A stretch of DNA of 64,000 bases from Octopus vulgaris (Eukaryota), in NCBI GenBank assembly GCA_951406725.2, contig OX597827.1:28954001-29018000 (forward strand), given 5' to 3'. The notes beneath the pieces are model-generated. The model did not search any database. It was not told where the DNA came from and saw only the letters and a program-made list of their open reading frames with translations. Position numbers and translations under genes: made by a program. Position 1 is the stretch's first letter, and each line of letters begins with the position of its first letter. Of this stretch, positions 24,161-25,329 are shown piece after piece.

Positions 24161-24545
24161 TAATAACAATCGTAATAATAATATTAATAACAATAACGAT
24201 GATGATGATGATGATGATGTTGCATCCAGCATCGCTCGCAACATCCAGTACAGAGACCCAAACCATCACCACGGTGAAACGTACGGAGGAGCAAATGATA
24301 TAAACTTGTTTTATCATAATTTCTCCTCCCTACTTTGCACTGTATATCATAACCAGTAACACATCTAAGTATAATAGTTCCTTAACCATAATACTGGAAA
24401 CAGACTGGATGCCGTTAGTCTACAAGGAATCCTAAACTCAACAGTAGCAGTTCTATATTTAAGAGATGAGGAATTATGAACATTATTTTCCCTTTTTTAC
24501 ATTATTTACATTTGGTGGATATTTGTTCTCATCTTGTTTTTTGCT

Positions 24546-24591
24546 AACACAACGTTTCGGCTGATATACCCTCCAACCTTCATCAGGTGTC
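24546..24591 (-). ncRNA. Minimal type I hammerhead motif
   Basis: gacac CUGAUGA a gguugg-aggguaua-ucagcc GAAA cg UU guguu; palindromic AACGUU stem III. Confidence 0.75.
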
Positions 24592-24867
24592 TTCGGGAAA
24601 TTTCGAACCTGGGTTCTTATTCCAAAGGTATTTTTCGATGCTGCTGCTGCTGTTGTTGTCGTTGTTGTCGTTGTTGTTATTATTATTATTATTATTATTA
24701 TTATTATTATTATTATTATTATTATTATTATTATTATTATTATTATTATTATTATTATTATTATCATTTTCACTGCCTGGAATCGAACTCGGAATCTTGG
24801 GGTTAGTAGCCCGCGCTCTTAACCACTACGCCATACGCCAGTGGTGGTTAAGAGAGCAGGCGTGGTT

Positions 24868-24934
24868 ATGGCGTAGTGGTTAAGAGCGCGGGCTACTAAC
24901 CCCAAGATTCCGAGTTCGATTCCAGGCAGTGACC
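24868..24934 (+). promoter_or_regulatory. tRNA-like Pol III internal promoter head (mirror copy on - strand at 24770-24835)
   Basis: A box TGGCGTAGTGG, anticodon-like arm ggg-CTACTAA-ccc, B box GAGTTCGATTCC. Confidence 0.8.
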
Positions 24935-25329
24935 ATAATAACAATAACAATAATAATAATAATAATAATAATAATAATAATAATAATAATAATAATAATA
25001 ATAATAATAATAATAATAATAATAATAATAATAATAATAATAATAATAATAATAATAACATTGAAAAATACGTTAGCAATGAGAACCCAAGTCCGAAATT
25101 TCCCCAAGACACCTGATGAAACGTGTTAACAACAGGACAAATATCTGTCAAATGTAAATAATTCAAATAAAGTAAATAATGTTCAACAGTAACAGTCGTA
25201 CACCTATTGATGCACAAAAGATTCAATGAATAAAACAAGAAACGGAAGAGTTTGTACATCAATATAAATTCGATGCACAACAAGGCTTGTAACCAGAAGC
25301 AGATCGATACACAAATAGTTGTACAAGCT

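Follow-up and report, generated by a model that had tools for sequence, protein, structure and literature searches.

A Penelope-like element of Octopus vulgaris whose pLTR opens with a tRNA-Arg-derived head, a likely Pol III-type promoter

The palindrome at 24438..25196 of the 64,000-nucleotide stretch of Octopus vulgaris DNA that we analysed (the window) is best read as one insertion of two pLTRs of an autonomous Penelope-like element (PLE), each opening with a tRNA-Arg head as its likely internal promoter of Pol III type; we give this reading a probability of roughly 0.62. The identity of the family as a PLE is near certain. What is unusual is that the pLTR of an autonomous PLE opens with a captured tRNA-Arg head, which probably serves as a Pol III promoter; we found no such self-copying element described.

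The palindrome and its parent element

As the preliminary description had it, the sequence contains two head-to-head arms, each with a tRNA-like head, a (TAA)n linker and a minimal hammerhead, inside a direct repeat of 14 bp with one mismatch (24438-24451 / 25183-25196). The parts of the palindrome are:

24438..24451, no strand: left target-site duplication, 14 bp, its final 4 nt common to the element's long end
24448..24640, minus strand: left arm tail, long form, which is the 5' end of the PLE ORF including a PLE 'tail' extension of ~35-45 nt
24546..24591, minus strand: minimal type I hammerhead of the left arm, core intact as judged from sequence geometry
24641..24768, minus strand: left linker, (TAA)n decaying to (CAA)n/(CAG)n (triplet array 24677-24768)
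24770..24835, minus strand: left tRNA-Arg(ACG)-derived head, starting at +6 (A box 24823-24833, B box 24779-24790)
24836..24866, no strand: head-to-head junction of 31 nt, holding a scrambled partial head copy
24867..24936, plus strand: right tRNA-Arg(ACG)-derived head, starting at +6 (A box 24869-24879, B box 24912-24923)
24935..25058, plus strand: right (TAA)n linker, about 41 units
25059..25182, plus strand: tail of the right arm in its short form, with the ATG of the ORF start at 25079 and a hammerhead core at 25113-25119, stem II deleted
25183..25196, no strand: right target-site duplication

The putative left hammerhead has a stem I of 5 bp, a stem II of 6 bp and the palindrome ACGU as helix III, with a predicted cut between 24551 and 24550; its core is complete, and stem II is missing from the right arm, as described earlier. 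Tails of about 150 nt had been reported; both tails are present, but their lengths differ (left ~190 nt, right ~125 nt). The statement that no T-runs precede the ribozyme also held, with 0 T4 on the sense strand in all four window arms. ARAGORN found no tRNA in the 64-kb window, a local Rfam scan gave no hammerhead family match and a weak tRNA match (16.4 bits, E 2.4), and an Rfam scan of the entire window returned microsatellite noise.

An autonomous PLE sharing the tail was found; its RT + GIY-YIG ORF begins in the tail, and the proposed role of PLE machinery was borne out, the palindrome arms being PLE pLTRs. Two head loci extended upstream into a frame ending like a PLE endonuclease, and among the best 30 loci with endonuclease DNA the head lay directly downstream of the GIY-YIG ORF in 28 and the tail in 23. 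The head begins 29 nt after the stop of the RT + GIY-YIG ORF. An upstream walk from the endonuclease gave RT motifs and then near-complete copies, and one locus (L121) has the order head, linker, tail, ORF, head. Across 57 loci that carry the ORF, the column majority is a single open frame of 803 codons that starts inside the tail, its first 400 nt being covered by 1-3 copies only; in 27 of 37 further ORF-start copies the tail is joined directly to the ORF body, and the frame opens at an ATG just 5' of the ribozyme. The tail corresponds to the first ~55 codons of the PLE ORF. Because the head follows the ORF, the tail is the ORF start and L121 shows the complete layout, the head, the (TAA)n, the hammerhead and the tail jointly make up an autonomous PLE's pLTR.

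Pfam recognized RVT_1 (E 5.8e-8) on one of four ORF pieces and gave no match for the other three, including the endonuclease piece; in the Atlas the final ORF piece groups with GIY-YIG proteins (look-alikes 0.97), and a PDB search gave weak RT/TERT matches only (E of at least 0.006). The full element, ~2.9 kb in length, has the order head-(TAA)n-ATG/hammerhead-RT-GIY-YIG-stop-29 nt-head-(TAA)n-hammerhead-tail. It shares with EN+ PLEs the RT followed by GIY-YIG in a single ORF, the pLTR at both ends that includes the ORF start, partial tandems, the inverted 5'-truncated copy, the one-sided tail of 30-40 nt and the minimal hammerhead in the pLTR. It may belong to the Penelope/Poseidon clade, which is defined by RT phylogeny and by a C-terminal EN lacking the upstream zinc finger of Neptune type; its domain order and motifs agree with such a placement. 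Of the seven full-length copies that have a 5' head, four extend further, into the end of an upstream ORF (partial tandems); since these run past +1, some templates are tandem read-throughs.

We searched for the family in the 2.8-Gb assembly (227 contigs). An exact 17-mer of the head occurred 2,863 times and a 23-mer 2,007 times, with 0 occurrences of the reversed controls. A piece of the family was present in 5 of 40 evenly spaced 10-kb stretches, which extrapolates to ~35,000 loci with a 95% interval of 11,000-82,000, wide because the even sample covers only 400 kb. Head and tail are linked, as was expected of the element: among loci chosen by best match or exact pattern rather than at random, a tail lay <500 bp from the head in 24 of 30 head-selected loci (an inverted piece lay upstream in 19 of the 30), and 29 tail-selected arms had a full head in 16 cases, a partial head in 4 and none within 1.1 kb in 9. 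Many heads and tails are unlinked because retroelements interrupt the (TAA)n linker. Such interruptions, upstream of the tail or downstream of the head, were frequent (L022, L029, L051, L052, L032, also L010, L027, L002 and L005); the inserts in the first four match the R4/Dong-like protein of the window (tblastn E 1e-20 to 1e-28), and the last four have a common second insert of ~600 nt. This agrees with the targeting of (TAA)n by Dong elements. The family had also been proposed to spread (TAA)n arrays; a major role of this kind was rejected, since the family occurs in 1 of 29 (AAT)8+ arrays in the even 400-kb sample (3 of 8 in the window).

Four further loci (L130, L131, L132 and L042) contain short units stacked head-to-tail, with one head start joined inside another unit, which suggests template jumps at the RNA 5' end. 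L145 and L147, ~0.85 Mb apart on contig C1, are 97.6% identical over 3 kb and represent a segmental duplication, not two insertions.

A second insertion had been noted near 34263. It is present at 34266-34940; its duplication is not clear (best score 6), and its right arm keeps the head end only:

34266..34654, minus strand: left arm, made up of the long tail, the linker, the head (34561-34626) and a 23-nt piece of 3' sequence from the ORF side (34632-34654)
34652..34940, plus strand: right arm with head end, linker and short tail with an intact hammerhead (core 34845-34851)

In the right arm the frame is open from the ATG at 34811 without a stop, and its translation corresponds to the N-terminus of the PLE ORF. 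The hammerhead at 34839-34890 has a stem I of 5 pairs, a stem II of 6 and a helix III consisting only of the palindrome ACGU. This stretch folds better than 200 of 200 shuffles, but into a fold that closes the hammerhead core; the left-arm hammerhead stretch of the first palindrome does not fold above shuffles (z 0.14).

Several other elements are present in the window. A decayed non-LTR element at 22183-24170 (plus strand), which we take from its motifs to be R4/Dong-like, has as its end a tract rich in (TAA), ~270 bp to the left of the palindrome. A decayed L1/Tx1-like element with RT and endonuclease-like frames (10646-13856, minus strand) was used as a T-run control. Other PLE fragments, with an N-terminal-like frame and a GIY-YIG frame, lie at 5163-5558 and 61182-61530 (both minus strand). 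A near-perfect inverted repeat of ~360 bp at 47340-47700 is MITE-like and was the source of a false miRNA match, a long CA/TA-rich region at 59100-62800 contains an apparent local duplication (near-identical frames), and a frame at 57625-58074 (minus strand) beside a (TA)n array resembles the 3' end of a LINE, presumably of RTE type from its motifs.

The tRNA-derived head and the template's 5' end

The tRNA origin of the head was confirmed. A relaxed search pattern based on the head picked up tRNA-Arg(ACG) genes in the genome, ARAGORN confirming two of the three fetched, and the head aligns to genomic tRNA-Arg(ACG) with a score of 71 (shuffles 19+-6, maximum 41.5) and with +1 in register. The octopus SINEs OR1 and OR2 are likewise tRNA-Arg-derived. 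Elsewhere in the genome, at least 16 tRNA-Arg(ACG)-like matches, many ~206 bp apart, lie within 14 kb at G000:C2:211893160-211907118.

Pol III is expected to start a few bases before tRNA +1. Among 93 A-box-bearing heads (from loci not chosen for an ORF, leaving out truncations inside the head; some insertions contribute both of their arms, and one pair is a segmental duplicate), the 5' start was at -8..+6 in 83 and at -9..-45 in 3, and 7 ran into the ORF. Short copies carry at -8 and -9 the bases of the inverted arm, not the native ones, and exact genome-wide counts gave 214 palindromic joins (148 + 66) versus 94 with native upstream bases. The pile-up, the inverted-arm bases and the excess of joins together point to a sharp template end a few bases before +1.

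The sense strand is also poor in Pol III terminators. The 2,514-nt majority contains 0 T4 runs, compared with 4.5 expected under base shuffling (P 0.009), 2.8 under synonymous shuffling (P 0.033) and 2.3 under a first-order Markov model, where the deficit is weak (P 0.09). Individual copies, which are not independent of one another, have 12 T4 runs in 63 kb versus 133 expected. T4 is not depleted in the two control elements of the window (L1/Tx1-like, 9 in 2755 nt; R4-like, 2 in 1898 nt); G4 runs are also absent from the majority (0 versus 3.1 expected). The boxes are barely more conserved than the remainder of the head (A 0.957 and B 0.972 versus 0.954). Three raw RNA-seq runs under a related label and one contig set were compared with L123. 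The data were unstranded, their depth increased with copy number in the 3' direction, and neither +1 nor the ribozyme site showed any starts; we regard these results as uninformative. Among the listed holders of the sequence, none was recorded as RNA. On these sequence features we consider a Pol III-type start probable. The earlier proposal of a Pol III-driven SINE is plausible as to the start, given the 5' ends at -8..+6, but not as to SINE identity. A bolder version, which we put forward only tentatively and consider doubtful, is that Pol III transcribes an autonomous coding element over its full length (~2.9 kb, or as tandem multimers) from the captured tRNA-Arg promoter, the ORF being purged of T4 and translated from an RNA that is uncapped and has a leader rich in A, (TAA/CAA)n.

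It is unlikely, though more conceivable than the other alternatives, that Pol II makes RNA from the same pLTR, with a TATA-like box at the upstream tandem ORF end setting a start near +1 and the tRNA head being a captured passenger. A TATAAG is present at -34..-29, 28-32 nt before the likely starts, which suits Pol II just as well as Pol III, and the four partial tandems among seven full-length copies retain this box. A capped mRNA would, moreover, be easier to translate. For rotifer pLTRs, TATA/Inr promoters have been proposed (PMC3846280). The Pol II reading requires a chance coincidence of the start with tRNA +1, and leaves unexplained both the intact A and B boxes in an otherwise broken tRNA fold and the missing T4 runs.

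The short form raises a different question, namely whether it is a true non-autonomous, Pol III-driven SINE lineage that re-amplifies from short masters with PLE proteins acting in trans; we regard this as improbable. Short forms do dominate (83 of the 93 heads), with intact boxes and no terminator, and they stop at +1 more often than full-length copies (83/93 versus 3/7, P 0.007). Their linkers are longer (median 51 nt versus 23 nt, P 9e-5), which hints at separate short masters, and their divergence is somewhat lower (6.5% versus 8.8%, a difference confounded by selection). Longer linkers and the higher +1 stop rate leave room for some re-amplification from short masters. However, a comparison of 63 short with 16 ORF-linked pLTRs gave one majority substitution, polymorphic in both, and a difference in the count of a 9-nt repeat, and no fixed diagnostic base was found between these two sets. 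The unit is simply the pLTR of the autonomous element, so no separate SINE assembly is needed. Accordingly, the suggestion of a SINE with a borrowed PLE tail did not hold, as the head belongs to an autonomous PLE pLTR and the tail is the ORF start; nor is the palindrome a separate SINE class, its arms being PLE pLTR pieces and palindromes being standard for PLEs as far as the consulted parts of PMC8557442 and PMC3846280 go. The possibility that the head is only a SINE relic in a longer PLE was right in placing it inside the element, within the pLTR, but the head is not a mere relic because copy 5' ends pile up at its start. Of the features of tRNA-derived SINEs, the family has the 5' tRNA-derived head with A and B boxes and lacks a separate non-autonomous lineage. 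The short form would therefore be SINE-like in its working if Pol III makes it, while it appears from its sequence to fail SINE membership as a lineage.

Very improbable is an origin of the 5' pile-up from RNA structure or processing, by RT stalling at the 4-bp hairpin at -7..+5 or by RNase P cutting the tRNA-like head of a multimeric transcript at +1. The hairpin coincides exactly with the pile-up, whose ends range from about -7 to +6, but it is small, shuffled versions of the region fold equally well (z -0.43), the cloverleaf is broken and full-length cDNAs pass the head start more often.

Palindrome formation and the hammerhead

That the whole palindrome is a single insertion, as first suggested, is supported by flanking repeats beyond chance. 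A flanking repeat scoring at least 11 was found in 20 of 43 long/short palindromes and in 0 of 43 shifted controls, and the duplications are about 11-21 bp, mostly 12-14. The long/short type is the rule: tail 3' ends cluster at query positions 140-149 (82 hits) and 180-188 (72 hits), and 57 palindromes comprised 43 long/short, 6 short/short, 1 long/long and 7 unclear cases. A full head, or the body of the ORF, can be found on either arm, and in some cases the arm with the ORF is the short one; the long arm therefore cannot in every case have arisen by fold-back copying. Among the 15 joins listed, the forward arm of AC joins was short in 4 and long in 2. Fold-back self-priming as the sole origin of the palindromes was rejected, junction polarity not following arm length and ORF arms occurring with a short tail. 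The palindrome is ordinary PLE output, for which two separately primed cDNAs fit better than fold-back copying. PLEs are known for truncated copies in inverted orientation, for tails on one side only and for short duplications (PMC8557442 and PMC3846280). For Poseidon_Ac, the available text of PMC11167929 describes an ORF that starts at the hammerhead, two-strand cutting in vitro and two internal RT starts, with the tail between them.

The earlier identification of a minimal dimer-type hammerhead agrees with the core, the stems and the ACGU palindrome seen in the sequence. It appears intact in 19 of 60 tails, for which cleavage is predicted. The minimal hammerhead of metazoan PLEs is described, in the portion of PMC4209133 consulted, as needing a dimer. 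No sign of ribozyme-cut templates was seen: 5' stops inside the tail showed no excess at the cut (3 of 56 versus 2.2 expected). This agrees with uncut RNA as the main template, as stated in the accessible part of PMC11167929, and the template of the octopus family is likely uncleaved by the ribozyme as well.

Under the favoured reading, in which two pLTRs of the PLE enter in one insertion, the RNA would start a few bases before tRNA +1 and meet no T4 terminator. RT/endonuclease would bind the ORF-start region and cut both target strands 12-14 bp apart, and from each target 3' end a separate cDNA would be primed, at either of two internal sites separated by ~35-45 nt, such that one long and one short arm result. 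A cDNA begun in the first pLTR would run out of template at the head, where the RNA 5' end lies, and so produce solo pLTRs that resemble SINEs, and the two cDNAs would join head-to-head, often via the small palindrome at -7..+5.

Significance and comparison with known systems

Pol III promoters in retroelements have so far been described for short non-coding passengers (SINEs, TRIMp3). A Pol III-promoted coding PLE without terminators, if real, would challenge the ~1 kb, non-coding limit on such elements, and the solo terminal repeat of a partner would become a route to SINE origin; as the pLTR would then be a ready-made SINE, end-to-end Pol III transcription would show SINE birth inside the partner element. 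With its natural insertions, which number in the tens of thousands and share a sharp 5' end of the RNA, the family also offers a direct test of PLE palindrome formation. In annotation, solo pLTR copies can easily be mistaken for SINEs or for pseudogenes of tRNAs.

We found no PLE with a tRNA-derived pLTR in the open literature; repeat databases were outside this scope, and the family may be catalogued there as Penelope or SINE. A 2026 octopus repeat annotation reports 190 Penelope-like consensus sequences, its available part giving no detail on tRNA-derived pLTRs.

According to the available text of PMC10886601, the TRIMp3 elements Cassandra, Helenus and Ajax likewise have a small-RNA-gene Pol III promoter in the terminal repeat, tRNA-like in Helenus. 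They are, however, non-autonomous LTR elements of 0.3-1.3 kb, a size ascribed by the author to Pol III processivity, whereas the octopus element is an autonomous coding PLE of ~2.9 kb. Unlike TRIMp3, which is defined by two direct LTRs, PBS, PPT, a 4-5 bp TSD and no ORF, the octopus family has inverted arms, duplications of 11-17 bp and a coding PLE parent.

The SINE-like elements Sm-alpha and Sj-alpha of Schistosoma are also short dispersed repeats with a Pol III promoter followed by a hammerhead (PMC6765202, a review citing Ferbeyre 1998 and Laha 2000, available in part), so this combination itself was already known. They are described there as tandem head-to-tail units freed by self-cleavage, whereas octopus copies are head-to-head and their templates look uncleaved; a coding partner with the same unit is not described in that part of the review, whereas the octopus unit has a coding PLE parent.

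Non-LTR retrozymes are likewise short non-coding hammerhead repeats, for which a derivation from PLE pLTRs is argued, and form tandem arrays that give rise to circular RNAs; the parts of PMC7229834 and bioRxiv 10.64898/2026.07.22.740005 consulted do not describe a tRNA head or Pol III promoter in them. Octopus copies occur as head-to-head pairs or singles, not as the head-to-tail tandem units self-cleaved to monomers that characterize retrozymes. In S. mansoni, minimal hammerheads paired on opposite strands at a distance of 100-700 bp have been interpreted as truncated PLEs (PMC4209133).

The closest relatives in organization are Penelope/Poseidon PLEs such as Poseidon_Ac of Anolis (PMC11167929) and Pen2/Pen3 of Adineta vaga (PMC3846280; see also PMC8557442). 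As far as these sources were available, they share with the octopus family a single ORF with RT and then a C-terminal GIY-YIG, a pLTR that includes the ORF start and a minimal hammerhead located there, as well as the inverted 5'-truncated copy, an optional tail of 30-40 nt at one end, short target duplications, partial tandems and a palindrome at the pLTR 5' end. Promoters proposed for known PLE pLTRs are TATA/Inr-like (PMC3846280, in the part available), unlike the tRNA head found here. What sets the octopus family apart from these elements is a tRNA-Arg-derived head with A and B boxes at the start of its own pLTR, together with a (TAA)n leader, an excess of solo pLTRs that begin at this head over ORF-bearing copies, and a sense strand without T4.
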